Below, one piece after another: positions 3,053 to 39,622 of a DNA stretch of 39,622 nucleotides. The DNA is from an uncultured bacterium. GTDB taxonomy: Bacteria > Patescibacteriota > Minisyncoccia > Phycocordibacterales > UBA918. The stretch lies in contig CALMKR010000218.1 of the NCBI GenBank assembly GCA_937867625.1, positions 1 to 39,622 on the forward strand. The letters are read 5' to 3'. The first letter of the stretch is position 1, and each line of letters opens with the position of its first letter. Both the position numbers and the translations under genes were made by a program. The notes beneath the pieces are model-generated. The model had not been told where the DNA came from and searched no databases. It was given only the letters and a program-made list of their open reading frames with translations.

Positions 3053-3785
3053 ACTAAACGGAAAGTATGAACTGTACTTACCAGAGCATAGAGCTAACCG
3101 TGAAGAATGGCATAACGAAAAAGGTTGGGAAAAAGCTCGGCTAGAATCAATGCACAAACACATAGGTAAAGGTGATGTTGTCTACTATGTAGGAGCTGAA
3201 CTCGGAGAAATGGCGGCACTCTGTCAAATGTGGGGTGCAGAGGTAGTACTATTCGAGCCTAACTTTAGTGCATGGCCTAGTATTAAAAAAACATGGGAAG
3301 CTAACAAACTTAAAAACCCTTTGGCTTGCTATGCAGGATTTGCTAGTAATGTACATCAACCGATACCGCCTAAACCTGATATTGCTTTATTAAACGGCAA
3401 AGGTTGGGAAATAGGTGAAGATGGATTTCCACTATCTGCTAATGGAGAAATAGTCGAAGCTCATGGATTTAGTGAATTGTATTTAGAAGCTGATGGTTTA
3501 CCGCAATACAGAATTGATAACTTAGTAGCAGAGGGACTTAAACCACCAACAGTTATTACTGCTGATGTAGAGGGTGCAGATATGCAAGTACTATATGGAG
3601 CAAAAAAAACAATAGAACAGTATCACCCGAAGATATGGATGTCATGGCATCCCGAATTTCAGTTTGACCAGTACGGAATATACCTTAGAAATGCTAGAGA
3701 TTGGTTAATTGACAGAGGATATTCGGAAACGTTTTTAGACTACGAACATGAAATCCATATGTTATATGTAAGTAAGGGTGTATAA
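3033..3785 (+). CDS. FkbM-family SAM-dependent methyltransferase
   Basis: GDVVYYVGAELGEMAALCQMWGAEVVLFEPN (SAM-binding G-rich loop) and ITADVEGADMQVLYGAKKTIEQYHPKIWMSWH (the K/DxEGxE...Gaxxxl signature of FkbM enzymes). Confidence 0.75.
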   Translation: MKMVKSKLNGKYELYLPEHRANREEWHNEKGWEKARLESMHKHIGKGDVVYYVGAELGEMAALCQMWGAEVVLFEPNFSAWPSIKKTWEANKLKNPLACYAGFASNVHQPIPPKPDIALLNGKGWEIGEDGFPLSANGEIVEAHGFSELYLEADGLPQYRIDNLVAEGLKPPTVITADVEGADMQVLYGAKKTIEQYHPKIWMSWHPEFQFDQYGIYLRNARDWLIDRGYSETFLDYEHEIHMLYVSKGV

Positions 3786-10212: not shown

Positions 10213-10612
10213 CCCACAAAACATAGAACAACACAAGTTCAAACCGGGACAATCGGGCAACCCTGCCGGAAGACCACCGGGTATACCTAATGCAAAAACA
10301 AGGTATAAAAGATTACTAGAACTTGTTACTAAGAAAGCTAACCCTGTAACTGGTGAGATAGAAGAATTTACTCAACTAGAATTGATGGACATGGCTATTT
10401 TTAATAAAGCACTAAAGGGTGATTTAAGAGCCTATAAAGAAGTGATGGATAGACTAGAGGGAACATCTGCACAAAGCGTAGACTTAACAAGCGGTGGTGA
10501 AAAGCTACCAACAGTTATAATAGAAAATGTATATGGAACAAAACCAAACTTCCGAGTCAATAATGAGGTTGCCGAGGCTGATAACGTGGCAACAGACAGT
10601 AACCCAGAATAA
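10202..10612 (+). CDS. terminase small subunit (putative)
   Basis: Position immediately upstream of TerL. N-terminal KPGQSGNPAGRPPG motif is common in small terminases. Confidence 0.55.
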   Translation: MALNPQNIEQHKFKPGQSGNPAGRPPGIPNAKTRYKRLLELVTKKANPVTGEIEEFTQLELMDMAIFNKALKGDLRAYKEVMDRLEGTSAQSVDLTSGGEKLPTVIIENVYGTKPNFRVNNEVAEADNVATDSNPE

Positions 10613-11768
10613 CGCTAGATTTAAAATACTTAGATGTGGACGTAGAACTGGTAAGACTTTTTATTTTATTATAGATAGTTTATCGCTTGGGTTACTCTAT
10701 CCTAATTTATCTATGGCGTATGTTGGCTTAACGTATGGTCATGCAAAAGATGTGGTATGGGAAGATTATATAAAGCTTGCCGGTGGATTGATTGAATATA
10801 AGAACAGCCAAGAGTTAATAATACGACTACATAATGGCTCACGCATAAAATTGTACTCATGGGATTCAGTCGATAATATGCTTGGTAAGAAGTATCACAA
10901 GGTCTATTTAGATGAGTGTGCTGTAGCTAAGAACTTAAAAAAAGCTTGGGAAGATGTAATCGAGCCTACACTATTGGATTATCATGGTGAAGCGTTATTT
11001 GCTTCTATGCCTCGTGGTAAAGGTCAATTTAAAGCTATGATTGACGAGAGTAAAAAGAAAGATGATTGGCAAGACTTTCACTTTACATCTTATGATAATG
11101 ACACTATCCCAAATGTAAGAGAGGATTTGGATCGCAAGCGTAGAGATATAGCACCTAGTGTATTTGCTCAACAATACCTTGCAGAGTTTACTGATTTAGA
11201 GGGCCGTATATATACTGAATTTAAGCGTGATGATGCATTACAAGAATGTCCATTTACGCCTATACGATATGGGTTTAGTGTAGACTTTGGCTACAATCAC
11301 CCACTTGCGGCTTATGTATACGCTATAGGAAGTGACGATCAGATTCATGTTATTAAAGAACTGTATGCTCGCAAGTTAGATGATTTACAACGTGTACAAG
11401 CTATTAAAGATTTAACCGATGAGTATAGAATAGATGTTGCAGTAGCAGATAGTGAAGACCCGATTGCGATACAACAGCTATCTAGAGAATTAAACTTTAG
11501 GGTAGACCCTGCTGTTAAAGGTAAAGACTCAGTGTTTCAAGGTATTAACGAAATGAAATCAGCCTTTCATTCAGGGCAACTTACGGTCAGTGATACATGT
11601 ACAAACTTAATAGACGAATTAGAAATATACAGTTGGAAGCTAGATGCAGAGGGCAAGGAAACCGATCAACCAATAAAAGAGAATGATGACGCTTGCGACT
11701 CAGTAAGGTACTTTGTTACTAAGATACGAAACACAAGTTTAATAACAATGCAAGATATTGCAATGTGA
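10527..11768 (+). CDS. terminase large subunit
   Basis: Walker A LRCGRRTGKTF, Walker B-like VYLDEC, and a C-terminal nuclease region with acidic residues. Start uncertain (10527 or 10563). Confidence 0.85.
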   Translation: MYMEQNQTSESIMRLPRLITWQQTVTQNNARFKILRCGRRTGKTFYFIIDSLSLGLLYPNLSMAYVGLTYGHAKDVVWEDYIKLAGGLIEYKNSQELIIRLHNGSRIKLYSWDSVDNMLGKKYHKVYLDECAVAKNLKKAWEDVIEPTLLDYHGEALFASMPRGKGQFKAMIDESKKKDDWQDFHFTSYDNDTIPNVREDLDRKRRDIAPSVFAQQYLAEFTDLEGRIYTEFKRDDALQECPFTPIRYGFSVDFGYNHPLAAYVYAIGSDDQIHVIKELYARKLDDLQRVQAIKDLTDEYRIDVAVADSEDPIAIQQLSRELNFRVDPAVKGKDSVFQGINEMKSAFHSGQLTVSDTCTNLIDELEIYSWKLDAEGKETDQPIKENDDACDSVRYFVTKIRNTSLITMQDIAM

Positions 11769-11821: not shown

Positions 11822-13789
11822 ATGAAATTAGGTCAGCGATTACAGACCGCATACAAGGTTCTAACTTCTCAGAATCTTGGCAATTCAATTAGTGGACAAG
11901 TTCTACGCAATTATCAACAAGGGTCAGCCTTTAACCCAACACGACAACTCTACGGTATAACGTATAAAGCAATAGATAAAATAGGTATGGCAGTAGCCGA
12001 CTACGAGCCACTGGTAGAAAAGTCTAATGGTGACACACTAGAAAACCATCCTATTTATAACCTTGCTAAAATGCCAAACCCTAGACAGAATGGGCATTAC
12101 TTCTTTCATCTTGAAGCGATGCTGTATGAGATATATGGAGAAACTTTCTGGTACAAGGTACGAGGTGAACGTACAAACAAAGTAAAAGAACTGTACCTAC
12201 TTAATCCGGCTTCTATGGAGTTAGTATTTGGTGAGGGCGAGTTGCAAGGCTATGTACTACATAAACCAAACGGACAACAGATACCGTTTACCTTAGAGGA
12301 AATACACCACGATAAACGACCTAACCCATTTAACGAATGGCGTGGTATGTCAGTAATGGAAAAAGCATCACAGTATGTAGACATTGAACTCACTACTACT
12401 TCGTTTACGTTGAACTATATGCGGAACAACGCTAGTCCATCAGGGATTGTAAGCCTACCTGATATGGATCGAGATACGTTTAAACAATTCGCTGCTCAAT
12501 GGCGTGAGGGGTATGAGGGACCGGAGAACGCCGGAAAGACTGCCTTTATACGAGGTGGTGAAGCAGACTTTAAAGCAGTTGGTGCTACTCTAAAAGACAT
12601 TGATCAGAAGATAACTCGTGACATGGCAAAAGACGACGTGCTGATGATGTTTGATATGCCGAAAGGACTACTCGGAGCGAGTGGTGAAAAAGGACTGGGG
12701 CGAGCTGAAACAGAAGCATTAGAATACATATTTGCGAAGTATAAGGTCGAGCCTATGATGGAGCGACTTGATGAAATCTTTGAGGGTATATTAGTAGAGA
12801 TGGGTGTGAGTGATTCTACCAGTGAGATTACCCACTTAACCTCTATTCCTGATGACAAGCAATACATACTGAACCAGAATGAAAAAGGGGTCGGACGGTG
12901 GATTACTATAAACGAGGCTCGGCAATCACAGGGACTTCCTCCCATACCTGATGGTGATGAACTCGGTTCACCGCCTGCACCCACAAATGAAACTAAGGCT
13001 AAAAAAGTCACGCTTAAAAAAAAATTAACTAAAGCTGAAATGACTAAGAAAATCAATCAAGACCAAGAGGAGTTTAGACGAAACTTGGTTGAGACTAACG
13101 ACATCTATGCTAAAAAGTACAAAAGCAAATTAGTTACATTTCTTAGTAATCAAGAAGATGAGATTATTGAAAAGATAGGCGCTCGGAAAAAAGCCTTTGA
13201 AGAATGGTTGTTTGATATTAAGAACGCCAGTGAAGATATGAAAGACGCATTACTGCCAGTCATATTAGATTTAATGGAAGCACAAGGCGAAGATGTTACT
13301 AACTTTATATCTGGGGAACTCTTAACGATATCTCCTGAGATACGTCAAAAAGTAGAACACGACATTCTACAAATTAGTGGTGTGTTTAATACTGATACTA
13401 TTAAGGCACTAGAAAAGACACTACAAGAGGGTCAAGCACAGGGTGAAAGTCTTGTCAAACTAAAAAAACGAGTGGAAACAGTGTACTCAGACGCTAAAGG
13501 CTACCGAGCCGAGAGAATTGCTAGAACTGAATCATTACGAGCCAGTAATAACACGGCGGAGATTGTCTACCAGCAATCTGGCTATAACAAAGTCGAATGG
13601 TTTACTAATCCCGGAGCATGTGAGTTTTGTCAGACGTTTAGTGGCAAGACCAAAACTATTGGCTCAAACTTTATGGATAACGGTGATACATTGACTGGTG
13701 CTGATGGTGGTATGATGAAAATAACTTACGATGATGTGGCAACGCCACCGCTCCACCCTTCTTGTACTTGCTCGCTAGTACCAGTTTAG
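11822..13789 (+). CDS. portal protein fused to a Mu F / SPP1 gp7-like head morphogenesis domain
   Basis: 655 aa, positioned after TerL. The C-terminus AERIARTESLRASNNTAEIVYQQSGY...NPGACEFCQ...PPLHPSCTCSLVP is the classic MuF domain ending. Confidence 0.8.
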   Translation: MKLGQRLQTAYKVLTSQNLGNSISGQVLRNYQQGSAFNPTRQLYGITYKAIDKIGMAVADYEPLVEKSNGDTLENHPIYNLAKMPNPRQNGHYFFHLEAMLYEIYGETFWYKVRGERTNKVKELYLLNPASMELVFGEGELQGYVLHKPNGQQIPFTLEEIHHDKRPNPFNEWRGMSVMEKASQYVDIELTTTSFTLNYMRNNASPSGIVSLPDMDRDTFKQFAAQWREGYEGPENAGKTAFIRGGEADFKAVGATLKDIDQKITRDMAKDDVLMMFDMPKGLLGASGEKGLGRAETEALEYIFAKYKVEPMMERLDEIFEGILVEMGVSDSTSEITHLTSIPDDKQYILNQNEKGVGRWITINEARQSQGLPPIPDGDELGSPPAPTNETKAKKVTLKKKLTKAEMTKKINQDQEEFRRNLVETNDIYAKKYKSKLVTFLSNQEDEIIEKIGARKKAFEEWLFDIKNASEDMKDALLPVILDLMEAQGEDVTNFISGELLTISPEIRQKVEHDILQISGVFNTDTIKALEKTLQEGQAQGESLVKLKKRVETVYSDAKGYRAERIARTESLRASNNTAEIVYQQSGYNKVEWFTNPGACEFCQTFSGKTKTIGSNFMDNGDTLTGADGGMMKITYDDVATPPLHPSCTCSLVPV

Positions 13790-15180: not shown

Positions 15181-15368
15181 AACCCATAAACCGCAGATAC
15201 CACGACTTAGACGACACCACCAAACAAAGCTGGCTAACTTGGGATTTATCTAATGGTAGTGAGATAGTAGTGGAGAACTTAACTACTTTTGGTGAAGTAA
15301 CAGACAGTAAAGAACAGCTTACAGCCTTAGCTCAAGAGGTCTGTGATAGTTATGAGGAGAATCTATAA
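15177..15368 (+). CDS. hypothetical acidic protein (63 aa)
   Basis: ATGA-coupled ORF. Confidence 0.4.
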   Translation: MKPINRRYHDLDDTTKQSWLTWDLSNGSEIVVENLTTFGEVTDSKEQLTALAQEVCDSYEENL

Positions 15369-17893
15369 TGGCAGTAATTGTATCCAATGGAGCAACTAAC
15401 TTATCCACAGCTGGTGGGTTTTATCGGTCTGAGAGTTACAACCTCTCACCTATGAGTACAACTTATCTGACATTAGCAAGTGCTAGAACAATAAATGTTA
15501 CTTTTGCTAATGCTGGCAACTGTCAAGGGTTAATTATTTACCTAGCTACCGCAACACACTGCAACAAAGACGTAACTGTTAAACTCCAAGAGAATACTGG
15601 CTCATGGGTAGACCGAGCAAGTGTAACCCTGACCGCTAATCAAATTACTAACAGCGTAGCCAGTAATGCTCAGGCTACCTGGGTAAAGGCTTTTACATTT
15701 GCAACTCCTTATGCCGTAGACACCACAGCTAGCAAATGGCGATTCGATATATCACAAGGCTCAGGTACAAATAACTGGTCACTCAGAACTTCAAATGGTA
15801 CAGCTCCGTCATATATTACTTGGTGCGATAACGCCATAAGCTACACTACTAACGATGTAATTATCGCTAAAGAAACTATAACCATTGACCAAAACTGTAC
15901 ATTTAAGGGGCTATTATCTACTGGGGATAGCACCAACTCTATTTGTGCGATTGCTTGTACTAGCACTACTAGAGACCCAACTGCTAACGGTATGATAGTT
16001 TGGGACGACACCCCAGCGTCAAGCTACACAATGAACATAGACGGCTATATGGTGTTATCTGCTTATGCAGGTTTTCACATTGGTAATTCAACTAATCGCA
16101 TACCCTATGCACAAAAAGCAGTCGTGAACATTAAAAACGCTACTTCTGGCACTGCTACTAATACAGGTATAGGACAGGGTGGCAACGCTTCTCACGCAAG
16201 TGTAACTGGCAAGTCTAGTTTTCAGTTATACGGTGAAGTACCTGCCGTGCGAGTTACTGAGCTTGCTTCAGACGCTAACTTTAACCAAAAGAACATAGTT
16301 ACTACTGACACAACTGGTTGGAGTGTGGGCGATAAGGTGGTTGTCTGTAAGGCTCAAACAGCTGGTGGTACTGCCGAAACTGCACCATTTACAATTGATA
16401 CAATATCTGGCACTAATATTACATTTTTAGAAAATATACTCTCAGCTAAAAGGCTAACTGGCGGTAAAGTTTTCAGAGTTAATGGCTATGGAGTAGAAAT
16501 AATAGTAGAGAATAGTACTGCCATTACCAATTATCTGAACGGCTGTAATGGTTACACAGTTGATGGGGCATATATAACAAGAGCTGTTTTTAATTTTACT
16601 AATGGAACAAGTGAGTGGAACGATAGTGCGGCTAACATTACTGACCTGAAAACAGTAGACAGTGCATTTGTAGGTGCTTCTATCTATGCCACAGTAAATT
16701 GGCATAATAGTAGAACAATAACCGCTGAACGCTGTCATAATTTTAAGGGTGGATTCAGTAGCACTTTTTATGGACCACCAACAGCATTAAAAACAATCAA
16801 GGATTGTATATTCTATGGAACAGGTATTGGTGGTTGGTACAGAGTCCAAAATGCCTTAGTTGAGGATAATTATGTGTATAATAATGGGTCACCACTACTA
16901 GGTAATGGTGGTCTTTACAACTCAACTTTTAGAAATAACTATTTTTGGGGTGCTCAATATGTGTTCCGCAACGATGGTCCATTTGCCAATATTCTGTTTG
17001 AAAATAATATCTGGGATTATACCGACCGCTCTTTCTATAATTTTAATGTAGTAACTAATGTTATTTTTAGAAACGACACATTTGGAGTTGAGCTTGCCAC
17101 AAGATATGTTTTTTCTAACTTTCAAAATTATTCACCAATATCGGCAGTTCTATTTGACAACTGTGTAATTAAGCCAGTTCTCAACTCGCCAACCGAAAAC
17201 AATGGAGAGAGTGTGGACGGCTCAAAAATGAGGTTCCAAGACTACAACCAAACCGCTAACTATGATTTTACTGCTATGACTTACGGCACGATTACTAGAA
17301 CAGGCACAGGACTAGCTGACACTACCGTCCGAACGGCTGGGGGCTTTGCGATGAGGTTTGAACCGACTTATTCACCAAACCTAATGCACTGGGAACAGAA
17401 TGTTCCAACAGGCAATATTCAGAACAAGACGATGACTGTTTCACTCTGGGTCAAGCTAAACAATTCAGCTTACTGGGCTGGCACTCACACCAAACCAACC
17501 CTAACGATTGATTACGACAACGGCACAACTATCACCTCAGTAGCTCAAGGTAATACTAACTGGCAACTACTAGCTTGCACCTTTACACCTGCTACTACCT
17601 ATGGACAGATTGAAATGAAAGTCACAGGAGCTACCGACGCTACTGGCACGGATAGATACTTCTACGTTGATGATGTGAATGTAGCCTACCCTGCTGGTGT
17701 GGCTATTGACCTTGGCAACTTGGACTTGTGGGCAGAGGGATTGCCTGTAGCTCCAGCTATTGCAACTATGCCTAGTCTTGGTGGTGTATGGGACGAGCCA
17801 TTATCTGTACACACAATTGCTGGTAGTGCTGGAAAGATATTGAAAGACGGGGCTGATAACGCAGAGGCAGCAGCATATGATATGTATAAATAA
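15368..17893 (+). CDS. large Asn/Thr-rich protein, probable right-handed beta-helix (fibre/depolymerase-like)
   Basis: 841 aa. Recurrent short N/G-rich turns (NNGS, GNGG, FRNN, FENN, FRND) are typical of parallel beta-helix repeats. Fold call is by eye. Confidence 0.45.
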   Translation: MAVIVSNGATNLSTAGGFYRSESYNLSPMSTTYLTLASARTINVTFANAGNCQGLIIYLATATHCNKDVTVKLQENTGSWVDRASVTLTANQITNSVASNAQATWVKAFTFATPYAVDTTASKWRFDISQGSGTNNWSLRTSNGTAPSYITWCDNAISYTTNDVIIAKETITIDQNCTFKGLLSTGDSTNSICAIACTSTTRDPTANGMIVWDDTPASSYTMNIDGYMVLSAYAGFHIGNSTNRIPYAQKAVVNIKNATSGTATNTGIGQGGNASHASVTGKSSFQLYGEVPAVRVTELASDANFNQKNIVTTDTTGWSVGDKVVVCKAQTAGGTAETAPFTIDTISGTNITFLENILSAKRLTGGKVFRVNGYGVEIIVENSTAITNYLNGCNGYTVDGAYITRAVFNFTNGTSEWNDSAANITDLKTVDSAFVGASIYATVNWHNSRTITAERCHNFKGGFSSTFYGPPTALKTIKDCIFYGTGIGGWYRVQNALVEDNYVYNNGSPLLGNGGLYNSTFRNNYFWGAQYVFRNDGPFANILFENNIWDYTDRSFYNFNVVTNVIFRNDTFGVELATRYVFSNFQNYSPISAVLFDNCVIKPVLNSPTENNGESVDGSKMRFQDYNQTANYDFTAMTYGTITRTGTGLADTTVRTAGGFAMRFEPTYSPNLMHWEQNVPTGNIQNKTMTVSLWVKLNNSAYWAGTHTKPTLTIDYDNGTTITSVAQGNTNWQLLACTFTPATTYGQIEMKVTGATDATGTDRYFYVDDVNVAYPAGVAIDLGNLDLWAEGLPVAPAIATMPSLGGVWDEPLSVHTIAGSAGKILKDGADNAEAAAYDMYK

Positions 17894-18707: not shown

Positions 18708-19004
18708 ATGCAGTTACATCTATATGGCGGTGAAAAACTTGTTTTAACTGTAGATGACGCTGTGCAATATATTAAGGTAAACGGCACAGATAACATCTTT
18801 GGTATATCTGATGAGAAAGTGGCGTATTTTGCTGGACTTAAAAAGTTAAATAAAGACACTACTAAAGCCGAAGAATTACTGACTAAAGATATTACTTTGT
18901 TTGAATACTACTATGAAAAAGGTGAACTGGAATTAGACAAACTAGACCATGCAACCAGAGACAAACTTAAACAAAAATTACCTGATGTGAAAGTGAAAAT
19001 ATAA
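18708..19004 (+). CDS. hypothetical protein (98 aa)
   Basis: ORF with AGGAGAAG upstream. Confidence 0.45.
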   Translation: MQLHLYGGEKLVLTVDDAVQYIKVNGTDNIFGISDEKVAYFAGLKKLNKDTTKAEELLTKDITLFEYYYEKGELELDKLDHATRDKLKQKLPDVKVKI

Positions 19005-20503
19005 TGGCAGTAACTATTAGAGGCAGTCAAACGTATCAGTCTGGAAGCGGTGGATTTTTATCTTCGCACACTATGGCAGACCTTGATGTTACAGGAACAG
19101 ATACATGTGCTATAGCTGCTGGGTTCAACCGTAACCCTGCTTCTGATGTAGGTTCATGGACGTTTGAGGGTAACACTCCTACTGCAATAGCTGACTCAAT
19201 AAACGCTAATGTGGTAGCTGTTAGTACTCAGCGTTATTTAATAAGTAACGCAGCTACTACAATCGTATCTAATACACCATCATTTAAGCTACAAGCCATG
19301 ATAGGCGTTGCCTTAGAGGGTGTTGACCAGACTACACCTATTGCTGGTTCTACTACTGGTGGTTCTTATGGCACAGCTGCGACTGCAAGCTATACAGGTA
19401 CAAGTGGCAACATGTTGCTTGTATTTGTATCTACTCAAAACGATAGAACATTTACTGCTTCGGGTACAACTGATATAACCTCAGTCACTCATGCAGACGC
19501 TAACCTTGGTTCGGGTTATGCAGGGTATGTATCGGCTACAGGAAGCTCGCAAACTATAGGAGCAACTTTATCGGCTAACGATAACTGGCGCTTAGTAATA
19601 ATGGAAGTTACGGCTGCTGCTTCGGGTACTACGCTTGTAGTACAAGATATATCTACAACGCCAACTTTCGAAGTACCTGCATTAACTCAAGCTAACACCC
19701 TTGTAGTACAAGACGCTTCTATTACGCCTACACTGGAAAACGTAGCACTCACTCAAGCTAATACTCTAGTCGTACAGGATATATCTACTACACCAACATT
19801 AGAAAGTCCTGTTTTAAGTTTATCGTTGATAGTAGCGGACATTAGCAGTACACCTACACTAGAAAGCCCTACATTAACGCAAGCCAACACATTGGCAGTA
19901 AATAATGTTAGTACTACTCCTACTATAGAAAGTCCTGCACTTACTCAGGCAAATACCCTTGTAGTAACTGATATAAGTACAACACCAACTTTTGAAAGTC
20001 CTGCACTTACGCAAGCTAATAATCTAACTGTAGCTAATGTATCTACAGCCCCTACATTTGAAAGCCCTGTTTTAACTCAAGCCAATACTTTAGCTGTAGC
20101 CGACATATCTACTACACCTACTTTAGAAGCTACTGATGTATCTGGTGCAAATGTTCTATCTGTAAATGATATATCGACAACTCCTAGCTTCGAAATACCG
20201 AGTCTTATGCAAGCTAATAATCTTGCAGTACAAGATGTGAGTATAGTAACAGGATTAGATTCAACAACTCTTGATACAGGGATTACTACATTAACGGTAC
20301 AAGATTTAAGTCTTACACCTACACTAGAAACAATAGATTTTAGCACCGCAGTAGATATAGAACTTACTATTAGACAAATACAAACGGATATTGAAGTATC
20401 TCAAGAACTAACTGATTTAATTATAAGACAACAAATAACCGATATAATCGTAGAACAAGTAACTGATTCTATAATTGTTCGTCAGGAAATATCAGAAGTA
20501 TGA
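19004..20503 (+). CDS. tandem-repeat Ser/Thr/Pro-rich protein (putative virion fibre or decoration protein)
   Basis: 499 aa. Residues 206-445 form eleven units of consensus TQANTLVVQDISTTPTLESPAL. The C-terminus has three IRQ..TDIIV-like mini-repeats. Confidence 0.6.
   Translation: MAVTIRGSQTYQSGSGGFLSSHTMADLDVTGTDTCAIAAGFNRNPASDVGSWTFEGNTPTAIADSINANVVAVSTQRYLISNAATTIVSNTPSFKLQAMIGVALEGVDQTTPIAGSTTGGSYGTAATASYTGTSGNMLLVFVSTQNDRTFTASGTTDITSVTHADANLGSGYAGYVSATGSSQTIGATLSANDNWRLVIMEVTAAASGTTLVVQDISTTPTFEVPALTQANTLVVQDASITPTLENVALTQANTLVVQDISTTPTLESPVLSLSLIVADISSTPTLESPTLTQANTLAVNNVSTTPTIESPALTQANTLVVTDISTTPTFESPALTQANNLTVANVSTAPTFESPVLTQANTLAVADISTTPTLEATDVSGANVLSVNDISTTPSFEIPSLMQANNLAVQDVSIVTGLDSTTLDTGITTLTVQDLSLTPTLETIDFSTAVDIELTIRQIQTDIEVSQELTDLIIRQQITDIIVEQVTDSIIVRQEISEV
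19619..20338 (+). repeat. in-frame tandem repeat: 11 units, period 66 nt (one 60-nt unit)
   Basis: Unit boundaries at aa 206, 228, 250, 272, 292, 314, 336, 358, 380, 402 and 424. DNA copies differ at many synonymous positions. Confidence 0.85.
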
Positions 20504-20754: not shown

Positions 20755-21453
20755 ATGCACATAAAAGCAGATGGGTTAATAGAAAAAGCTAGTCGATTAA
20801 AAGAGGGCGAAGTAGAATTTGTGGTATCAACGAACGCATGGGACGCTCACGGTGAACGTATCAATGTAGACGGCATAGACATAAAAGACTTTAAGAAAAA
20901 CCCTGTTGTATTATGGGGTCATGATGGATTTAACCTACCTATAGCCAAAGCCACTAAGGTTTGGAAAGAGGGTGGCAAGTTAATGGCTAAAGCTCAGTTC
21001 TATATGAAAGATGAGTTTGCAGCCAAAGTATATAACTACATTCTTGACGGATACTTGAACGCTGTATCGATCGGTGGAATGGTGCAAGAGTGGGGATCAG
21101 ATGGACTTACTATTACGAAGATGATGATGAAAGAGTTTAGTGTTGTATCAATCCCTGCTAACCAAGAAGCACTAGTCGCTAGTAAGTCATTTGATGGTAA
21201 TCAGAAAGCGGAACTCCGGGCATTGGCTAACGCTTACGCTCGTAAGATGCTGACTGATGGTAATGAAATTAAAAACGATATACAAGTATTGAAAACACTC
21301 GTAGCCACTTTAGAGGAATTAAGCTTTGCTGAACCCGAAGAAGCGTTGGCAGACGAAACAACTAATAGACGGGTTATTTTGCGCCAAGCGCAAGCGGTCG
21401 ATAACCAAGTTGAAACTGTCATAAGACAAATTAAATTGAAAGGAAACTCATAA
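20755..21453 (+). CDS. HK97-family prohead protease (S78-like) with C-terminal coiled region
   Basis: VEFVVSTNAWDAHGERI...VVLWGHD...FSVVSIPANQEA. Positioned directly upstream of the capsid gene. Confidence 0.8.
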   Translation: MHIKADGLIEKASRLKEGEVEFVVSTNAWDAHGERINVDGIDIKDFKKNPVVLWGHDGFNLPIAKATKVWKEGGKLMAKAQFYMKDEFAAKVYNYILDGYLNAVSIGGMVQEWGSDGLTITKMMMKEFSVVSIPANQEALVASKSFDGNQKAELRALANAYARKMLTDGNEIKNDIQVLKTLVATLEELSFAEPEEALADETTNRRVILRQAQAVDNQVETVIRQIKLKGNS

Positions 21454-22682
21454 TGAGTACAGAAAAAATCGAAATTGACTCAGACGTTATTGACGCTGTT
21501 TCAAAATCAGTTCAGGAAGCTCTAAAAGCTGACATGCCTAAAGCTGCAAGTGCAGACGAAATCGCTGACGCAATTATTGCTAAGACTGAAAAAGTAGAAA
21601 AGAAAGCTATTCACAGTGACGAAAAACCAGTTGTTAAAACTTCTGCTATGGAATCACTTAGTAAAGAACAACGCTTTGCAAAAGGTCTTGTTGCTTTTAA
21701 GAATAACGACTCAGTAGGAATTGCTGAATATAACTCTTATGTCGATAAGGCATGGAGCGAAGTAAACAAAGCTAACTACCAAAACGTTACAACTGCTGCT
21801 GACGGTGCTGCTCTAGTACCAGACCCAGAATTTGTTGCAGAGGTAGAACGACTTACGCAGGATTACGGTGTTGCTGCTCGTTTAGCTGATGTTCGTGTTA
21901 CTGATCGTGACTCTGTAACATTGCTTGCTGGTACAAACGAAATCTCGTTTACTCGTACAGGTGAAGCTACAGCGCAGAACGCTCAGAAACTTACTTACTC
22001 AGCTACAACTGTTGCACTTGATAAGTACATTGCTACACTAGTATTTACTAGCGAAGTTATTGAAGATGCTGCTATCAATCTTTGGAATGATGCTGCAACT
22101 GAAATCGCTCGTGCAAGAGCTAAATTGTTTGACCAATTAGTATTCACTGACGCTACATATGGCTTGCTATATGCACCTGATGCTGGTGAAGCTTTCAAAA
22201 CTCTATCAGTTGGTTCAGCCATCACAGATTTCTCTGCTGATGATGCTATGGATTCACGTTACCTCGTAGTCGGTTCAGTCCGTCGTGCAGGTCGTTACTT
22301 CATGCACCCTACTGTTTGGAACATGCTACGACAAACTAAAGAAGCTACTACTGGCGGTTACTTATTCGGTGGCGTTGGTGGTTCAGTAACTCCTATGATT
22401 GACGGTGTTGCTGTAGAACTAGTTGATATTCTTCCTGAAAAGGGTGAAATCACAGCTAACGAGCCTTTTGCAGTATTCGGTGATTTAAGCCGAGTTAAAC
22501 TACACGTTAAAAGACTATTGGAAACAAAAATCTTTGATAGCGGTGTTGTAAAAGACGCTGGCGGTTCTGACATTAACCTGATCACTCAGGACGCATGGGC
22601 AATGCGAGCTACACTTCGATGTGTACCGCAAACACGCTTCCCCGGAGCTTTCGTAATCATTGGAACTGGTGTTGTTTCTTAA
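21453..22682 (+). CDS. major capsid protein, HK97 fold, with N-terminal delta-like domain
   Basis: 409 aa, ATGA-coupled to the protease. Ala/Lys/Glu-rich N-terminal region of about 100 aa, then a typical HK97-type body. Confidence 0.85.
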   Translation: MSTEKIEIDSDVIDAVSKSVQEALKADMPKAASADEIADAIIAKTEKVEKKAIHSDEKPVVKTSAMESLSKEQRFAKGLVAFKNNDSVGIAEYNSYVDKAWSEVNKANYQNVTTAADGAALVPDPEFVAEVERLTQDYGVAARLADVRVTDRDSVTLLAGTNEISFTRTGEATAQNAQKLTYSATTVALDKYIATLVFTSEVIEDAAINLWNDAATEIARARAKLFDQLVFTDATYGLLYAPDAGEAFKTLSVGSAITDFSADDAMDSRYLVVGSVRRAGRYFMHPTVWNMLRQTKEATTGGYLFGGVGGSVTPMIDGVAVELVDILPEKGEITANEPFAVFGDLSRVKLHVKRLLETKIFDSGVVKDAGGSDINLITQDAWAMRATLRCVPQTRFPGAFVIIGTGVVS

Positions 22683-22718: not shown

Positions 22719-23246
22719 ATGGCACAAATTTCAAAGCTAAAAGTAGCAGCCGGATCTCTCATCACCTTTGGTGGTGTTGATTTAGGACATACTGTTGATG
22801 GTGCTGAAATTGAAATCGAGCGAGAGTTTACCGAAGTAAAGACTGACTTATACGGAAATACACCTGTAGATTACGTTTTGTCTGGTCAAAAAGCTACAGT
22901 CAAACTCAAGCTTGCTGAAATTCACCCGTTTACTCTTAACTATGTCATGCCTGAGAATGATTATGACGTTGGTACTGCTGACGATCATACTCACTTTGGT
23001 ACAAAGGCTGGTTACAGTTTGCGAAATGACGCTCTTGAATTAGTTATCACCCCACAAGGTGGTAATGCTGATGGCAACCTAACCTTTACTTTCTTCAAAG
23101 CGGTATCTACTGAAAACGCTACGCTTGCTTACAAAATAGATGAGCAATCAGTGTTTGAAGTAACGTTTACTGCTCTCGTTGATGAGAGTCGAGCTGCAAC
23201 CGATGGACGATTCCTCGGACGCATGGGACCAGTCAATATTTCATAG
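22719..23246 (+). CDS. putative major tail (tube) protein
   Basis: 175 aa. KLKVAAGSLITFGGVDLGHTVDGAEIEIEREFTEVKTDLYGNTPVDYVLSGQKATVKLKLAE resembles siphovirus tube proteins. No other tube candidate lies between the tail terminator and the chaperones. Confidence 0.5.
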   Translation: MAQISKLKVAAGSLITFGGVDLGHTVDGAEIEIEREFTEVKTDLYGNTPVDYVLSGQKATVKLKLAEIHPFTLNYVMPENDYDVGTADDHTHFGTKAGYSLRNDALELVITPQGGNADGNLTFTFFKAVSTENATLAYKIDEQSVFEVTFTALVDESRAATDGRFLGRMGPVNIS

Positions 23247-23260
23247 GCTGACTTTTAATC

Positions 23261-23293
23261 AGAGCCTTGTCGTAAAAAGCAAGGCTCTTTTTA
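23261..23293 (+). terminator. strong rho-independent terminator
   Basis: agagccttg (23261-23269)/caaggctct (23280-23288) followed by a T-run. Confidence 0.8.
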
Positions 23294-23315
23294 ATACTTG
23301 TGCTATTATGAAAGT

Positions 23316-25871: not shown

Positions 25872-26107
25872 TGATGATACCGGAGTTTATTAGATTTTAC
25901 GGATATACAGTCGAGCAGACTTTGAATGAATATGCTCAGACGTTCTTTTCGTTGATAAACTCTATGTATCAAATTCAAGCTAAAGAAACTTTGTATAATG
26001 CATACGCCTCAAACGCTACACAGGAACTTATTGATAGTTTACGAAAACAGGAAAAAGGTATTTCAGGCACAGTGCAAGAAGTTAAAAATGCAAGGAAATT
26101 CAAATGA
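25871..26107 (+). CDS. tail assembly chaperone extension (T-like part of the G-T fusion)
   Basis: In the -1 frame relative to 25521..25871 and open from the slippery site. ATGA-coupled to the tape measure. Confidence 0.55.
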   Translation: MMIPEFIRFYGYTVEQTLNEYAQTFFSLINSMYQIQAKETLYNAYASNATQELIDSLRKQEKGISGTVQEVKNARKFK

Positions 26108-27573
26108 GTACCAATGTAGGCTCGATTCATTATGACTTAGACCTCGATACTAAGAAGTTTGATAACGCTGTTAATGGATTAAACAATAAACTTAAATCTG
26201 TTGGTTCAGGTATGCAAGACGTTGGTAAGAAAATGTCTATGTTTGTTACCTTGCCAGTAGTTGCAGGCTTTGGTCTTGCGGTTAAAGCTGCGTCTGATTT
26301 TAATGAAACAATAAACAAAGTAGATGTAGCATTTAAAGAACAATCTAAAACTGTTAAAGACTGGTCAAAAACTTCACTTAAAAGTATGGGTCTTGCACAA
26401 GGTTCAGCGTTAGAAGCTGCTGCATTGTTTGGCGATATGTCTACAGCGATGGGGCTGAATACTAAAGAAGCTGCGGATATGTCTATGTCGCTTGTTCAGT
26501 TAGGTGCTGACTTATCTTCGTTTAAAAACATAAATATAGAACAGGCTCAAACTGCACTTGCCGGTATCTATACAGGTGAAACCGAAAGTTTAAAGAAGCT
26601 CGGTATTATTATGACCGAGACTAACCTACTTGAGTTTGCTCGTAAGCAAGGTATTACAAAAACAATTCAGGAAATGACTCAAGCTGAAAAAGTACAGCTA
26701 CGTTATGCGTATGTTATGAGTGTTACAAAAAATGCACAGGGTGACTTTGCAAGAACATCTGGTGGTGCTGCAAACCAAATGCGTATGACATCTGAACGTG
26801 TAAAACAACTATCTGCTGATATAGGGCAAAAACTTTTACCAATAGCTATGCAGCTTCTTGGTTGGGCTAACATGATACTAACTAAGTTCCAGCAATTAAG
26901 TCCACAGCAACAAGACATGATTCTTAAAATGTTAATGATAGCTGCGGTTATTGGTCCTCTTATTTGGATACTAGGAACGCTTGCAACTTCTATATCTGCA
27001 ATTATAGGATTGTTTGGTGCTACTTCTACTGCAATAGGAGTTGCCGGTACTGCGTTTAAAGGATTTGCTGCGTTACTTAATGTACCATTAGTTATGCCAG
27101 CGATCGTAGTTGCTGCTGCTTTGGCTTCGTTGTATGCAGTTTACCAAGCACTAGAAAGTATTAGGGGAGCTATAGACGCTGTTAATTCATCTGCTAAAGC
27201 TGCTGCGTCTGCTAACAAGTCTAATGATGCAGTATTAGCTAACTTAAATAACCTTGTTAAAAATGGAACACCTGAACAAAAAGCCAGAGCTAAAAAGACA
27301 CTTGCTGATATGGCTCGAACTGGTGGATTTGCTAGAGGTACAGCCTATGCTCCGGGTGGTATGGCTTTAGTTGGTGAGCGTGGTCCTGAATTAGTCAATC
27401 TACCAAGAGGCGCACAAGTACATACAAATCAAGAGTCTAAGCGAATGATGGGTAGTAGCGAAAGTATTACAATCAATATTGGAAGTGTTCAGAATCAATC
27501 AGACGCAGATTATATATTAAGAAGATTAAACCGAGATATGAAACGTGTTAATCTAGGAGTGAGTCCAGCATAA
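26104..27573 (+). CDS. tail tape measure protein
   Basis: Core ...LGADLSSFKNINIEQAQTALAGIYTGETESLKKLGIIMTE..., hydrophobic central segments, and C-terminal GGMALVGERGPELVNLPRGAQV motif. Confidence 0.85.
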   Translation: MSTNVGSIHYDLDLDTKKFDNAVNGLNNKLKSVGSGMQDVGKKMSMFVTLPVVAGFGLAVKAASDFNETINKVDVAFKEQSKTVKDWSKTSLKSMGLAQGSALEAAALFGDMSTAMGLNTKEAADMSMSLVQLGADLSSFKNINIEQAQTALAGIYTGETESLKKLGIIMTETNLLEFARKQGITKTIQEMTQAEKVQLRYAYVMSVTKNAQGDFARTSGGAANQMRMTSERVKQLSADIGQKLLPIAMQLLGWANMILTKFQQLSPQQQDMILKMLMIAAVIGPLIWILGTLATSISAIIGLFGATSTAIGVAGTAFKGFAALLNVPLVMPAIVVAAALASLYAVYQALESIRGAIDAVNSSAKAAASANKSNDAVLANLNNLVKNGTPEQKARAKKTLADMARTGGFARGTAYAPGGMALVGERGPELVNLPRGAQVHTNQESKRMMGSSESITINIGSVQNQSDADYILRRLNRDMKRVNLGVSPA

Positions 27574-31708: not shown

Positions 31709-31734
31709 TATGTTATGCTTAAAAGAGAACTACA

Positions 31735-32433: not shown

Positions 32434-33108
32434 ATGGCATATCAAGATTTTAAGAACAGATGGTTAGGACGAAGAATCGACTATGACCATGTGTACGCAT
32501 ATCAATGTGTCGATCTTATACTTATATATATCAAAGAGGAATTTGGACTCGCTACCGGAGTATGGGGTAATGCAATAGATTATTGGAACAGACCAAGTGC
32601 ACCGCTTCTAGGAAAATTTAACTTAGTGGCCGGCAGTAATGCTCAACAGGGTGACATTGTAGTGCTTAATGGACTTGCCGGTAATCCTTATGGACATATT
32701 GGTATCTGTGAATCGGTTACTGCTACCACTGTTAATATACTAGAACAAAATGGTGCTGGTTCAGGCACAGGTACAGGGCGTGACGCTATTCAAGTTCGTG
32801 GAATCCCTAAAAGCCGAGTAGCCGGTTTACTTCGACCAAAACCTGCAACACCGCCACCGCCACCACCACCGGCTGCACGTTCAACTGTTTTCTTACCAGG
32901 AAATGTACAATCATGGAGACTCTACCGAGTCGGCAGCTATTTGCGACCTAATACAAGCGACCAAATCGCTACACTCGCACCTGCTCAATTCGGTGGATTA
33001 ACGTATAAGATTGAGGCATGGGTAGGAGACTATGCAGTAGTAATACAAACTCAGATGTTTGGCCGTGGGGTTATCTGGGTAAAAGGAACGGAGGCACAAA
33101 TAAGATGA
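32434..33108 (+). CDS. endolysin: CHAP domain, poly-Pro linker, SH3b-like cell-wall binding domain
   Basis: Catalytic Cys in YAYQCVDLI, His in NPYGHIGICE, linker KPATPPPPPPPAA. Confidence 0.8.
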   Translation: MAYQDFKNRWLGRRIDYDHVYAYQCVDLILIYIKEEFGLATGVWGNAIDYWNRPSAPLLGKFNLVAGSNAQQGDIVVLNGLAGNPYGHIGICESVTATTVNILEQNGAGSGTGTGRDAIQVRGIPKSRVAGLLRPKPATPPPPPPPAARSTVFLPGNVQSWRLYRVGSYLRPNTSDQIATLAPAQFGGLTYKIEAWVGDYAVVIQTQMFGRGVIWVKGTEAQIR

Positions 33109-34870: not shown

Positions 34871-35143
34871 GTGGAAATTTCAAGAATCATCGAAAAACAA
34901 TCGATAATCGATAATCGACAAACTAAAGACTTAAACCAATCGACTATCGATAGGGAAACAGATAGACTTAGAACTTTACTAAACGATCAAACATTACATT
35001 CGGGTTTTGTAAAAAAGATATTAAACCAATTAAGTGAACATCAAATAAATAGCTTTGCTAATTACGCAGCTCGTAAGGGAAGCAATCCGGGTCGAGCGTT
35101 TGTCGGTTTATGTGAAAAGATAATGAGGCAAAAAAATGCCTAA
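34871..35143 (+). CDS. hypothetical protein (GTG start) containing internal ATCGA-type repeats
   Basis: AGGAG at 34859-34863, 7 nt before GTG 34871. Confidence 0.45.
   Translation: MEISRIIEKQSIIDNRQTKDLNQSTIDRETDRLRTLLNDQTLHSGFVKKILNQLSEHQINSFANYAARKGSNPGRAFVGLCEKIMRQKNA
34889..34951 (+). repeat. cluster of (A/T)ATCGA(T/C) motifs, three of them as tandem 7-mers
   Basis: atcga 34889-34893; AATCGAT 34899-34905; AATCGAT 34906-34912; AATCGAC 34913-34919; AATCGAC 34938-34944; TATCGAT 34945-34951. Confidence 0.75.
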
Positions 35144-35333
35144 AGTACCAAACCTAAACATACCGAATAAAGACTTTGGTAAATGGAAACCAGATAAACA
35201 AGAAGTAAACAATATGAAGTATTGGAAAGCTAAAAAACCAGTATCTACTAAAAGCTTCTTTGTATGTAGCGTTTGCAAGCATGATTGCTTAACCAGAAAA
35301 GCGTTAAAAGAACACTGGGATATGGAACATTAA
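35136..35333 (+). CDS. small protein with C2H2-like zinc finger
   Basis: FVCSVCKHDCLTRKALKEHWDMEH. Confidence 0.45.
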   Translation: MPKVPNLNIPNKDFGKWKPDKQEVNNMKYWKAKKPVSTKSFFVCSVCKHDCLTRKALKEHWDMEH

Positions 35334-35341
35334 AATAAGTA

Positions 35342-35370
35342 TTGACATATTAGCATAAGCGTGATACATT
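35342..35370 (+). promoter_or_regulatory. sigma-A promoter with extended -10
   Basis: TTGACA (35342-35347), 17-nt spacer ending TGa, TACATT (35365-35370). Confidence 0.6.
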
Positions 35371-35402
35371 GTTTATGTCAAACTAATAGAAAGGCAAGAC
35401 AA

Positions 35403-35615
35403 ATGAAAAACAAAACAACTAACGAAGCTCCAAAGAGCAAAAAAAATATCAAACTAGGTTTCGCTAACTTATGGGAACTCGTACTCGTATTAGCAGAGAT
35501 CGCCAGTGCATATACCTTTGCGACACAAAGCAATCAGGTGTTATGGGTACTCGCAGGAGTGCTAGGTTTAGACGCAAGTATCAGACTTGTTAAACGATTC
35601 GTGTATAATAAATAG
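35403..35615 (+). CDS. small membrane protein
   Basis: ATG 35403 after the AGAAAGG leader. TM segments LWELVLVLAEIASAYTF and VLWVLAGVLGL. The track start at 35361 lies within the promoter. Confidence 0.5.
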   Translation: MKNKTTNEAPKSKKNIKLGFANLWELVLVLAEIASAYTFATQSNQVLWVLAGVLGLDASIRLVKRFVYNK

Positions 35616-35670: not shown

Positions 35671-36252
35671 ATGAAAAAAGCAATATATACAGCCTTAGTA
35701 TTTGGACTGCTAATCGGGACAATGCTAATAGCGAGGCATATTCGGACACTAAATAATCAAATAGAATTTAAACAGATACAGTTAAAAGATAACTCAACGC
35801 AATTAAAGCTTTTAGATAGCAAGTACGATCAACTGAATAAAGAGTTAGACCGTACCGGCTCAGATAAAGCCAAGGTTGAAGAACAGCTAAAACAATTACA
35901 AATAGAGCGAGATAAACTACAAGCCGATTTGCAGGCTAAAAAAGAACAGAAAGCTAAAGACCTTGCAGTACGGGCTTCTCAAGCAGCACAGGCAACCGTA
36001 GTACCGCAGAAAGCATATGCAGCAAGTGGGAACTTCTACAAAGACTATATTTATCAGCATGAGTCAGGTAATAGAACTACCGCAGTCAATTCAATAGGCT
36101 GTCGTGGGCTTGGTCAGGCTTGTCCGGGAACAAAACTGCCATGTGGAGATGATTACGCATGTCAAGACGCTTGGTTCACTAACTACGCTATGCAACGATA
36201 TGGCTCATGGCAAAACGCCTATAACTTCTGGGTCGCAAATAGATGGTGGTAG
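35671..36252 (+). CDS. membrane-anchored coiled-coil protein with a C-terminal Apf/IsaA-like (lysozyme-like transglycosylase) domain
   Basis: N-terminal TM segment, long coiled coil, and C-terminus YIYQHESGNRTTAVNSIGCRGLGQACPG...QDAWFTNYAMQRYGSWQNAYNFWVANRWW. Confidence 0.5.
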   Translation: MKKAIYTALVFGLLIGTMLIARHIRTLNNQIEFKQIQLKDNSTQLKLLDSKYDQLNKELDRTGSDKAKVEEQLKQLQIERDKLQADLQAKKEQKAKDLAVRASQAAQATVVPQKAYAASGNFYKDYIYQHESGNRTTAVNSIGCRGLGQACPGTKLPCGDDYACQDAWFTNYAMQRYGSWQNAYNFWVANRWW

Positions 36253-36305
36253 TATGAAGTACGAACGCAAGTGGAAATATTACGAGATACTAGAATCCGA
36301 TCCTA

Positions 36306-36401
36306 TGGTATAATAGCCAAGTGTGAGGAACTCTTATTTCATTGTAAGCCTTTCTAGCTCGCATACTTATCCCTGTCTGTGAGGTCGGGGATATTTTATT
36401 T
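36306..36401 (+). ncRNA. candidate small transcription unit 1 (extended -10 promoter to hairpin/T-tract)
   Basis: TGgTATAAT at 36306-36314. Hairpin 36368-36375/36386-36393 plus ttttattt. Confidence 0.3.
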
Positions 36402-36402
36402 G

Positions 36403-36471
36403 TGATATAATTAAATAGCTCCCAATTGAGGGTTATAAAAAGCAGAAGCAGACTCGTAAGGGTCTGTTTTT
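36403..36471 (+). ncRNA. candidate small transcription unit 2
   Basis: TGaTATAAT at 36403-36411. Hairpin 36446-36453/36462-36469 with a T-run. Confidence 0.3.
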
Positions 36472-36472
36472 G

Positions 36473-36590
36473 TGTTATGCTTAAAGTGCCAAAATAGCCG
36501 GATTGATCACGTTATAGATTGCACCTTTGTTTCCAACAAACTCATATTATTACAACCGCCACTGACTTACCTCTTGGCGGTTCTTTTATT
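36473..36590 (+). ncRNA. candidate small transcription unit 3
   Basis: TGtTATGCT at 36473-36481. Terminator aaccgcca (36554-36561)/tggcggtt (36575-36582) plus cttttattt. Confidence 0.3.
36554..36590 (+). terminator. rho-independent terminator
   Basis: 8-bp GC-rich stem followed by a T-rich tail. Confidence 0.7.
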
Positions 36591-36600
36591 TAAAAAAGTG

Positions 36601-36629
36601 TTGACATTGTATAGCAATAAGCGTAATAT
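36601..36629 (+). promoter_or_regulatory. sigma-A-like promoter
   Basis: TTGACA (36601-36606), 17-nt spacer, TAATAT (36624-36629). Confidence 0.6.
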
Positions 36630-36659
36630 ATAAATGTAACTAATAGAAAGGTTTACAAG

Positions 36660-36809
36660 ATGATCTATACAAAAAACCAAATTAAAAAATGTCCACACTG
36701 TAACAGAATATTTTCTGCTATTACAGAAGATGACTACGTTGATTACAGCGAGCATAAAACGTATTGTAATCCGGCTCACAAACGAGCTGAATGTGGTGAA
36801 AGTTTCTAA
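36660..36809 (+). CDS. small zinc-ribbon-like protein (49 aa)
   Basis: ATG 36660 after the AACTAATAGAAAGG leader. Contains CPHC...CNPAH. Confidence 0.45.
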   Translation: MIYTKNQIKKCPHCNRIFSAITEDDYVDYSEHKTYCNPAHKRAECGESF

Positions 36810-39261: not shown

Positions 39262-39533
39262 ACACTTCAAACATAGATGACTTGTTCCCTTGCATAAGCT
39301 GTGGGGTCAACGCAGACCCAGCAGACGGGTTTGGTAAATGTACTTGTGGAAACGAAGCTAAAAGAGAAGCTATACAGCAGGAACTCTTAAAAGCGAGAAT
39401 TGCAAAGTTAGAAAACGTACTAAGCCAAGATATGTTTAAGAACCCAAACCCCACAGTTGAACAGAAAATCTTAAATCTAGTAATCAAAGACCATATCACT
39501 AACCTACAAGCACAACTAAAGGAGAATGAATGA
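39258..39533 (+). CDS. hypothetical Cys-motif/coiled-coil protein, paralog of the junction-spanning ORF
   Basis: ...CISCGVNADPADGFGKCTCGNEAKREAIQQELLKA...LQAQLKENE. Confidence 0.5.
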   Translation: MNTSNIDDLFPCISCGVNADPADGFGKCTCGNEAKREAIQQELLKARIAKLENVLSQDMFKNPNPTVEQKILNLVIKDHITNLQAQLKENE

Positions 39534-39598
39534 GTGACCCAGAAGACGGAGATTATCAATGTAGACCAGGGGGCGGTTGTCCCGTCTGTAATGATTAA
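39530..39598 (+). CDS. possible Cys-rich micro-protein (22 aa)
   Basis: ATGAATGAGTGA overlap. Translates to MSDPEDGDYQCRPGGGCPVCND. Confidence 0.25.
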   Translation: MSDPEDGDYQCRPGGGCPVCND

Positions 39599-39606
39599 GG
39601 AGTATT

Positions 39607-39622
39607 ATGAAATATAGTAACT
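39607..39622 (+). CDS. 5' part of the junction-spanning ORF (continues at nt 1)
   Basis: AAGGAG at 39597-39602, ATG at 39607. The frame is open to the window end and in phase with 1..161. Confidence 0.6.

Follow-up and report, generated by a model that had tools for sequence, protein, structure and literature searches.

In phage lambda (PR'-6S RNA-tR') and in Stx phages (StxS), a promoter lying close to a terminator yields a short RNA, and the Stx-phage RNA has a regulatory role of its own; these units precede late genes and depend on the Q antiterminator. The c4 antisense RNA of phages P1 and P7 pairs over a ribosome-binding site. In the immI system of these phages, c4 is needed together with a repressor to block downstream icd/ant, and it has a defined mRNA binding site (PMC8198154). 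For virulent Pseudomonas phages, 29 candidate noncoding RNAs (ncRNAs) derived from 5' untranslated regions (5'UTRs) via premature termination are described in six phages (PMC10914365). In Ceduovirus (c2-type phages), the noncoding PE1-T transcript is implicated in the initiation of replication, and origin function was shown with plasmids (PMC7150918). The locus considered here is a gap of 407 nucleotides (nt), positions 36253-36659, in a phage-derived contig of 39,622 nt (CALMKR010000218.1, our C218), the whole of which we call the window, together with three short transcription units predicted within the gap.

Judged from its sequence, this gap holds real, conserved transcription units, and the three units are probably phage small RNAs, whose function we infer. 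Our preferred reading, which remains tentative and to which we give somewhat less than an even chance, is that they specify three self-contained small RNAs, the first of which (RNA1) would act as a repressor by pairing with the ribosome-binding sites of two paralogous leaders. Phage small RNAs lying between a promoter and a near terminator, and an antisense RNA encoded upstream of its targets on the same strand (P1 c4), are already known (PMC10914365, PMC8198154). What stands out here is the series of three units before a separate early promoter, the support that covariation lends to RNA1, and the likely host group. The relative used for comparison is L022, a metagenome contig of 4128 nt and the sole relative fetched that is syntenic across the gap. 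The units consist of the following elements.

36304-36314, + strand: promoter 1, extended -10, TATGGTATAAT, with the core TGGTATAAT at 36306-36314 and without a -35 element
36321-36400, + strand: predicted RNA1, about 80 nt, with closing helix 36321-36327/36358-36364, block 36337-36357, terminator hairpin 36368-36393 and U-tract
36337-36357, + strand: conserved block of RNA1, 21 nt, TTTCATTGnAnGCCTTTCTAG, lying in the enclosed loop; two positions vary in L022
36368-36393, + strand: terminator 1 hairpin, -12.4 kcal/mol, then TTTTATTT
36401-36411, + strand: promoter 2, extended -10, TGTGATATAAT, with the core TGATATAAT at 36403-36411, directly after the T-tract of terminator 1 and identical in L022
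36418-36472, + strand: predicted RNA2, about 55 nt, with a weak 5' hairpin, an A-rich stretch and a 13-bp terminator hairpin with GUAA loop and U5
36449-36466, + strand: terminator 2 hairpin, -9.1 kcal/mol, then TTTTT; extended form 36443-36472, -17.1 kcal/mol
36471-36481, + strand: promoter 3, extended -10, TGTGTTATGCT, with the core TGTTATGCT at 36473-36481, identical in L022
36488-36590, + strand: predicted RNA3, about 103 nt, with an invariant 34-nt block 36504-36537, terminator hairpin 36554-36581 and T-tract
36554-36581, + strand: terminator 3 hairpin, -11.5 kcal/mol, then TCTTTTATTT

The predicted arrangement resembles c4 in that a small phage RNA lies upstream of, and on the same strand as, its targets (PMC8198154). 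It differs in that c4 belongs to a temperate immunity system, whereas here there are three predicted RNAs with their own promoters and terminators, and no repressor or antirepressor genes were recognised; any likeness of RNA1 to c4 would lie in the way of working alone, and the effect on translation is here a prediction. As with the ncRNAs of Pseudomonas phages, the transcripts would be short, run from a promoter to a near terminator and be conserved among relatives (PMC10914365), but those ncRNAs are described as one per gene, in the 5'UTR of that gene, whereas here three stand in series, and because a separate consensus promoter follows the three units, they do not form the leader of the gene downstream. 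PE1-T, too, is noncoding and is made between the first early promoters, at the edge of the early region (PMC7150918), but the early and late blocks diverge there, whereas all genes here run in one direction and the units number three; the analogy is positional only. In contrast to lambda and the Stx phages, no Q-like gene was recognised in the window.

The first-pass annotation had proposed three promoter-terminator pairs in what it called the largest noncoding stretch of the window, and both claims hold: all three motif pairs were found at the coordinates it gave, and the gap exceeds the runner-up, which measures 246 nt. At each of the three sites TG lies one base upstream of TAnnnT, which identifies them as candidate extended -10 (TGn) promoters of sigma-70 type, and the three hairpins with their T-rich tails have the build of predicted intrinsic (Rho-independent) terminators. 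The promoters were said to follow closely on the preceding T-tracts, and each motif indeed starts 0-8 nt from one; the lack of -35 elements is explained by this, since the -35 position falls in the preceding hairpin. Promoters 2 and 3, flanks included, are alike at 14 of 17 positions (direct repeat D1). A generic scanner picks up the middle terminator only, as the loop or mismatches of terminators 1 and 3 fall outside its rules, and none of the three promoters, as these have no -35 element. All three terminators are kept in L022, one through a compensatory change and two with their stems unchanged. Transcription from these signals, and the ends assigned to the three RNAs, are predicted.

The promoter motif is not confined to the gap. 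TG.TATAAT occurs at five sites on the + strand, two of them inside the gap, and at none on the - strand, and the wider form TRTGnTAnnnT is intergenic at 8 of its 10 + strand sites, while intergenic DNA makes up 5.6% of the window (binomial P 4e-9; composition-aware Poisson P 1e-7). This motif was defined post hoc from the three gap sites; minus those three, 5 of 7 sites are intergenic. Its intergenic members are as follows.

1628, 1756, 11770, 23299, 31709, 36304, 36401 and 36471, + strand: intergenic TRTGnTAnnnT sites

The third promoter had been noted to recur upstream of the lysis genes, and TGTTATGCTTAAA is found again at 31711; a special link to lysis does not follow, and this site is better read as one member of a predicted phage-wide class of extended -10 promoters. 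Folding is specific to one strand as well: compared with shuffles, 36253-36600 gives a z score of -2.75 on the + strand and +0.54 on the - strand.

Conservation of the gap can be followed in L022, in which the homologues of the proteins at 35136, 35361 and 37051 are 100% (30 residues matched), 95% and 86% identical, and which reads in order a transglycosylase-like gene, a micro-open reading frame (micro-ORF), an HNH gene, the noncoding block, the early promoter and leader, and a different first gene. Between the two, the block 36337-36590 has 86% identity, with two long runs unchanged, 36430-36494 (65 nt) and 36504-36537 (34 nt); by our own arithmetic, the chance that a given 65-nt run stays unchanged at 14% divergence is about 5e-5. 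The differences are confined to loops, to the 5' part of RNA1, and to a 1-nt and a 4-nt indel in RNA3. Two further contigs, both labelled X2, cover parts of the gap. One spans 36235-36420 with 7 differences and no gaps, and its preceding 76 letters are unlike the window; the other spans 36440-36662 with 22 differences and 19 gaps and diverges two bases past the ATG.

On these comparisons, RNA1 is the best supported of the three predicted RNAs. Separate folds of the window and L022 versions agree on the order of elements: a 5' helix around a loop, then a linker of 3 nt, the hairpin of the terminator and a U-tract. The helix opens at nucleotide 2, closes shortly ahead of the terminator and begins 7 nt past the -10 hexamer in both phages, as expected of a transcription start. 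In the 7-bp helix, as aligned with RNAalifold, 5 of 7 pairs are changed on both sides (UA/GC, GC/UA, UG/AU, AU/CG and GC/AU), and the terminator holds one further compensatory pair. Helices of at least 7 bp arose in 307 of 20000 shuffles of the 5' segment of the window and in 592 of 20000 for L022. In L022 the inserted HNH gene lies upstream of the promoter, TATGGTAAAAT, which is again 6 nt from the helix.

The conserved block displayed in the RNA1 loop is complementary to the leaders of two genes, which, with their surroundings, are listed here.

35342-35370, + strand: cassette promoter, sigma-70-type TTGACA-17-TACATT with TG, predicted to drive the two-gene cassette upstream of the gap
35403-35615, + strand: small protein gene with a two-transmembrane look by eye; its leader, CTAATAGAAAGG-N8-ATG, is a predicted RNA1 target
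35671-36252, + strand: transglycosylase-like gene (phrog_4602, phrog_12661), with membrane anchor and coiled coil by eye
36601-36629, + strand: main early promoter, TTGACA-17-TAATAT, the -35 element of which is kept in L022
36640-36662, + strand: conserved early-gene leader with ribosome-binding site GAAAGG and the ATG of the first early gene; predicted RNA1 target

A 15-bp duplex with a single G-U pair can form between positions 36342-36356 of the block and 36644-36658, where the first early gene has its ribosome-binding site and spacer, and this pairing appears in both the minimum free energy and the centroid structure of 36321-36700 (z -5.0). The regions 35329-35394 and 36588-36651, each a promoter with its leader, are paralogues, and in both phages the block pairs with both leaders (35403 and 36660) over 9 bp at the ribosome-binding site, with additional pairing near the ATG. 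The 3' half of the block, CCTTTCTA, occurs a single time on the + strand of the window. The case for these targets depends on the block being conserved and on the partners being neighbouring paralogous leaders, not on energy values.

This raises the possibility of the following mechanism. Three independent + strand units, each with an extended -10 promoter lacking a -35 element and an intrinsic terminator, would give ncRNAs of about 80, 55 and 103 nt. RNA1 would be a structured riboregulator in which the 5' helix closes a loop displaying the 21-nt block, with the terminator hairpin behind it; the block would pair with the 35403 and 36660 leaders at their ribosome-binding sites and start codons and thereby lower translation of the promoter-proximal genes, either in trans or within read-through transcripts. 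RNA2 and RNA3 would be conserved companions of RNA1. The fold of RNA2 (z -4.56) is dominated by its terminator hairpin, and the body of RNA3 is weakly structured (z -1.68 in the window, -2.97 in L022).

Several results weigh against this reading. The conservation rests on one full-length relative and equals that of the flanking coding DNA (89% and 84%), so that it is explained in part by shared recent ancestry. The register of the RNA1 helix was set by our own anchoring on the 5' end and the conserved TACTTA, and MAFFT alone shifts it. Of 500 shuffled versions of RNA1, 75 form a helix of at least 15 bp with one or other of 71 start regions. The duplexes of RNA1 itself with the two leaders (-19 to -22 kcal/mol) lie just 1-2 standard deviations below the mean background, and its top-scoring start region is that of another gene, 721 (-32.2 kcal/mol, reached by 2 of 120 shuffles). 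The 40 consensus pairs of RNA2 and RNA3 together include no compensatory change relative to L022, because the paired columns are invariant, and their best partners among phage start regions are matched by 100 of 120 shuffles for RNA2 and 26 of 120 for RNA3. The earlier proposal of regulatory small RNAs finds support in RNA1, whose compensatory changes and conserved single-stranded block are features to be expected of a functional small RNA, and not in RNA2 and RNA3, which have neither covariation nor a target that beats shuffles. A contig labelled X3 spans 35983-36373 and then seems to jump to 36484; since it apparently does not have 36374-36483, unit 2 may be dispensable, a weak hint from one contig at depth 3 with a 30-nt side. 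The public data, from four runs, are assembled contigs, which cannot show transcript starts, ends or expression, and the sole contig from an RNA library (X14) spans only 35953-36246 at less than 90% likeness, stopping short of the units.

The strongest competing explanation is that the gap is transcriptional punctuation only, with three stacked terminators insulating the early operon from late or cassette read-through, T-tracts that happen to sit upstream of re-initiation promoters, and short RNAs that are functionless by-products. A composite of hairpin, T-tract and TGTGnTAnnnT lies also at 23261-23312, before a structural gene, where it merely precedes that gene, so that such elements can be plain punctuation; the promoter at 1756 is likewise preceded by a T-tract, and RNA2 and RNA3 show no covariation or targets. 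By-products should drift, yet at about 14% divergence overall the runs of 65 and 34 nt show no change, the RNA1 helix survives five double changes with its 21-nt unpaired block kept, and a promoter firing into a terminator 55-105 nt further on serves no gene. We regard punctuation alone as unlikely, though a serious contender. The composite at 23261-23312 follows gene 22719-23246 and consists of a hairpin (-15.1 kcal/mol), a T-tract and the promoter TGTGCTATTAT, the same build as the terminator-promoter joints of the gap.

By analogy with lactococcal phage c2 (Ceduovirus), the region could instead be a replication origin at which noncoding transcripts from the head of the early region, ahead of the next early promoter, start transcription-dependent replication. 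The layout is like that of the Ceduovirus origin, a noncoding stretch between the first two early promoters (PMC7150918), and no DNA polymerase, primase, helicase or initiator was matched among the 43 distinct window proteins scanned, out of about 72 ORFs. The region has neither iterons nor tandem repeats, the complementarity to ribosome-binding sites would be left unexplained, and the cumulative GC skew, which climbs steadily without a turning point, is uninformative. We consider such an origin improbable.

More doubtful still is a leader controlled by antitermination, on the model of lambda PR'-tR', in which constitutive extended -10 promoters would fire and transcripts would halt at the terminators until a phage factor permits read-through. 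Promoters of the extended -10 kind without -35 elements would suit it, and promoter-proximal terminators recur in the window, with the consensus promoter at 1615 and a terminator at 1808-1842 before gene 1853. Nothing like an antiterminator was found among the 43 scanned proteins, the downstream genes are already served by the strong separate promoter at 36601, and three serial units would not be needed. Finally, a decaying remnant of gene loss with fortuitous motifs, to which the mosaic junction (a variable first gene, an HNH gene inserted in L022, the swapped C terminus of the upstream gene) might point, is hardly credible given the intergenic enrichment of the promoter motif, the strand-specific folding, the compensatory changes and the long identical runs.

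The 246-nt gap at 1607-1852 contains a promoter matching the consensus at 12 of 12 positions (1615-1643), the extended -10 site at 1756 and, at 1808-1835, a strong terminator with T7, which stands directly before the ribosome-binding site of a small gene at about 1853 (a membrane protein by eye). From these signals, this unit is a candidate attenuator or fourth small RNA.

Comparison with known RNA classes gave no assignment for the three RNAs. Rfam 15 has no match at gathering threshold in the window, L022, L024 or L003, and a permissive scan returned E values of 0.6-10 and 8-19 bits, against thresholds of 49-100. An ARAGORN scan of the window for transfer and transfer-messenger RNAs (tRNA, tmRNA) found no genes, in line with the first-pass impression that none of the RNAs looks like a tRNA. 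Its suggestions of toxin-antitoxin RNAs and of decoys fared less well: no small hydrophobic ORF is overlapped in antisense, there are no tandem RNA repeats, and no CRISPR (clustered regularly interspaced short palindromic repeats) array to mimic was found in the bin. A type I toxin-antitoxin system is not supported, as the small ORFs of the gap vary in frame and length, the micro-ORF peptide is charged rather than hydrophobic on our own reading, and the signals are one-stranded; nor is a type III (ToxIN-like) system, for want of tandem repeats, the direct repeats being the 17-nt promoter sequences and short T-tracts only. The CRISPR result comes from a crude k-mer scan of the 1.68-Mb bin, which found no CRISPR-like array and hence no repeat with which to compare the RNAs as candidate RNA anti-CRISPRs (solitary mimics of a host CRISPR repeat); the bin may not be the host of the phage. 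Contig C216 of G000 ends in a perfect 83-bp tandem repeat (about 21290-21518), which has no variable spacers and is hence not CRISPR-like. Searched against the whole bin, the three RNAs have antisense matches with chance-level E values only.

The gap had also been described as free of ORFs. This fails for its first 61 nt, which hold a conserved micro-ORF, and stands for the RNA bodies, which have no conserved reading frame: the indels of 1 and 4 nt break the 53-codon frame at 36472 in L022, where the 23-codon frame at 36426 differs in length, so that both were rejected as coding.

36254-36313, + strand: 19-codon micro-ORF, conserved, encoding the peptide MKYERKWKYYEILESDPMV, with its start 1 base past the upstream stop codon

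The micro-ORF is translationally coupled to the stop codon that precedes it, while its own one sits within the -10 element of promoter 1. The same peptide is encoded in L022 and L024 with 2 amino acid changes each. In three pairwise comparisons the ratios of synonymous to nonsynonymous codon differences are 5:2, 6:2 and 7:2, and third positions account for 6/9, 7/9 and 8/11 of the nucleotide changes. A loose end in X3 carries a variant of it (translated by eye). In L022 the HNH insertion splits the end of the micro-ORF, on its left, from the TATGGTAAAAT promoter, on its right; the inserted gene, at 1131-1580 on the - strand between the micro-ORF and promoter 1, has 149 codons and is HNH endonuclease-like by eye, and a TATGGTA(T/A)AA-like sequence flanks the insertion on both sides.

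The gap region has no match in cultured phage genomes and, among 61 bin-related genomes and 401 genomes of the bin's class, short AT-rich chance matches only. Exact patterns searched in viral contigs gave no hit for hairpin 1, promoter 3 or the RNA1 block and 4 chance matches for the RNA3 core; a scan of genome contigs gave none. A degenerate micro-ORF pattern matched 33 loci, none with any window protein, and loci recovered with proteins 37272 and 37051 do not contain the gap region. The transglycosylase-like gene was found at 8 viral, 9 metagenome and 2 genome loci, of which L024 has the micro-ORF only. A shared hairpin-rich noncoding stretch follows the transglycosylase-like genes of L024 (3640-3830) and L003 (about 3590-3760); one of its stems shows apparent compensatory changes, and Rfam has no match for it.

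In the window, the gap lies between an accessory cassette upstream (small membrane protein, transglycosylase-like protein, micro-ORF) and small early-type genes downstream. The longer reading of the small protein gene, from 35361, has no Pfam or PHROG match. The C-terminal part of the transglycosylase-like protein differs between the window (35671-36252) and L022 (432-1073), and an X2 contig diverges just before the stop codon; the swapped C terminus and this divergence indicate a recombination boundary at the end of the gene. Behind the conserved promoter, leader and ATG, the first early gene is different in each case (36660 in the window, 1998 in L022, and after 36662 in an X2 contig), and this position looks like a variable gene slot.

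The long ORFs of the window are all on the + strand, and the following have PHROG matches.

10527-11768, + strand: large terminase
11822-13789, + strand: portal, only 24% identical to the nearest cultured phage portal
20755-21453, + strand: protease
21453-22682, + strand: major head protein
26104-27573, + strand: tape measure
32434-33108, + strand: endolysin

These matches indicate the siphovirus-like layout of an uncultured phage. Neither library has a match for two large proteins (15368-17893 and 19004-20503), and the window also encodes several HNH endonucleases, glycosyltransferases, a ParB-methyltransferase fusion and a WDGH-domain protein. An exact 55-nt repeat (1-55 and 39340-39394, 228 nt before the contig end) has the look of an overlap in the assembly graph; a circular genome of about 39.3 kb is probable, with 39395-39622 as a variant branch. 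The bin to which the contig was assigned comprises 1.68 Mb in 309 contigs (96% complete, 6.9% contamination). The host is probably a Saccharibacteria-type bacterium, as suggested by homologues of the transglycosylase-like protein on two Ca. Saccharibacteria metagenome-assembled genome contigs and by the size of the bin-related genomes, 0.5-1.2 Mb; the GC content of the phage, 38.7% against 45.9% for the bin, weighs against it.

The cataloguing of small RNAs of lytic phages has just begun, and a limited literature search, which is not proof of absence, found no published description of small RNAs in phages of Patescibacteria-type hosts. Should the RNAs turn out to be by-products, the locus would be ordinary punctuation of transcription. 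If they are transcribed, it offers a compact, conserved and testable locus of three self-contained units, one of which has a clear predicted pairing site on two leaders, and the TRTGnTAnnnT motif and the terminator set may be used for annotating this uncultured phage group. A bolder extension, which we hold to be rather unlikely, is that the three RNAs form a portable cassette in phages of ultra-small Saccharibacteria-type bacteria, in which RNA1 would be a free-floating anti-ribosome-binding-site sequence silencing the membrane-protein cassette and the variable first early gene, while RNA2 and RNA3 would act on host targets. If true, such a cassette would represent the first riboregulators described for phages of the Saccharibacteria-type group.

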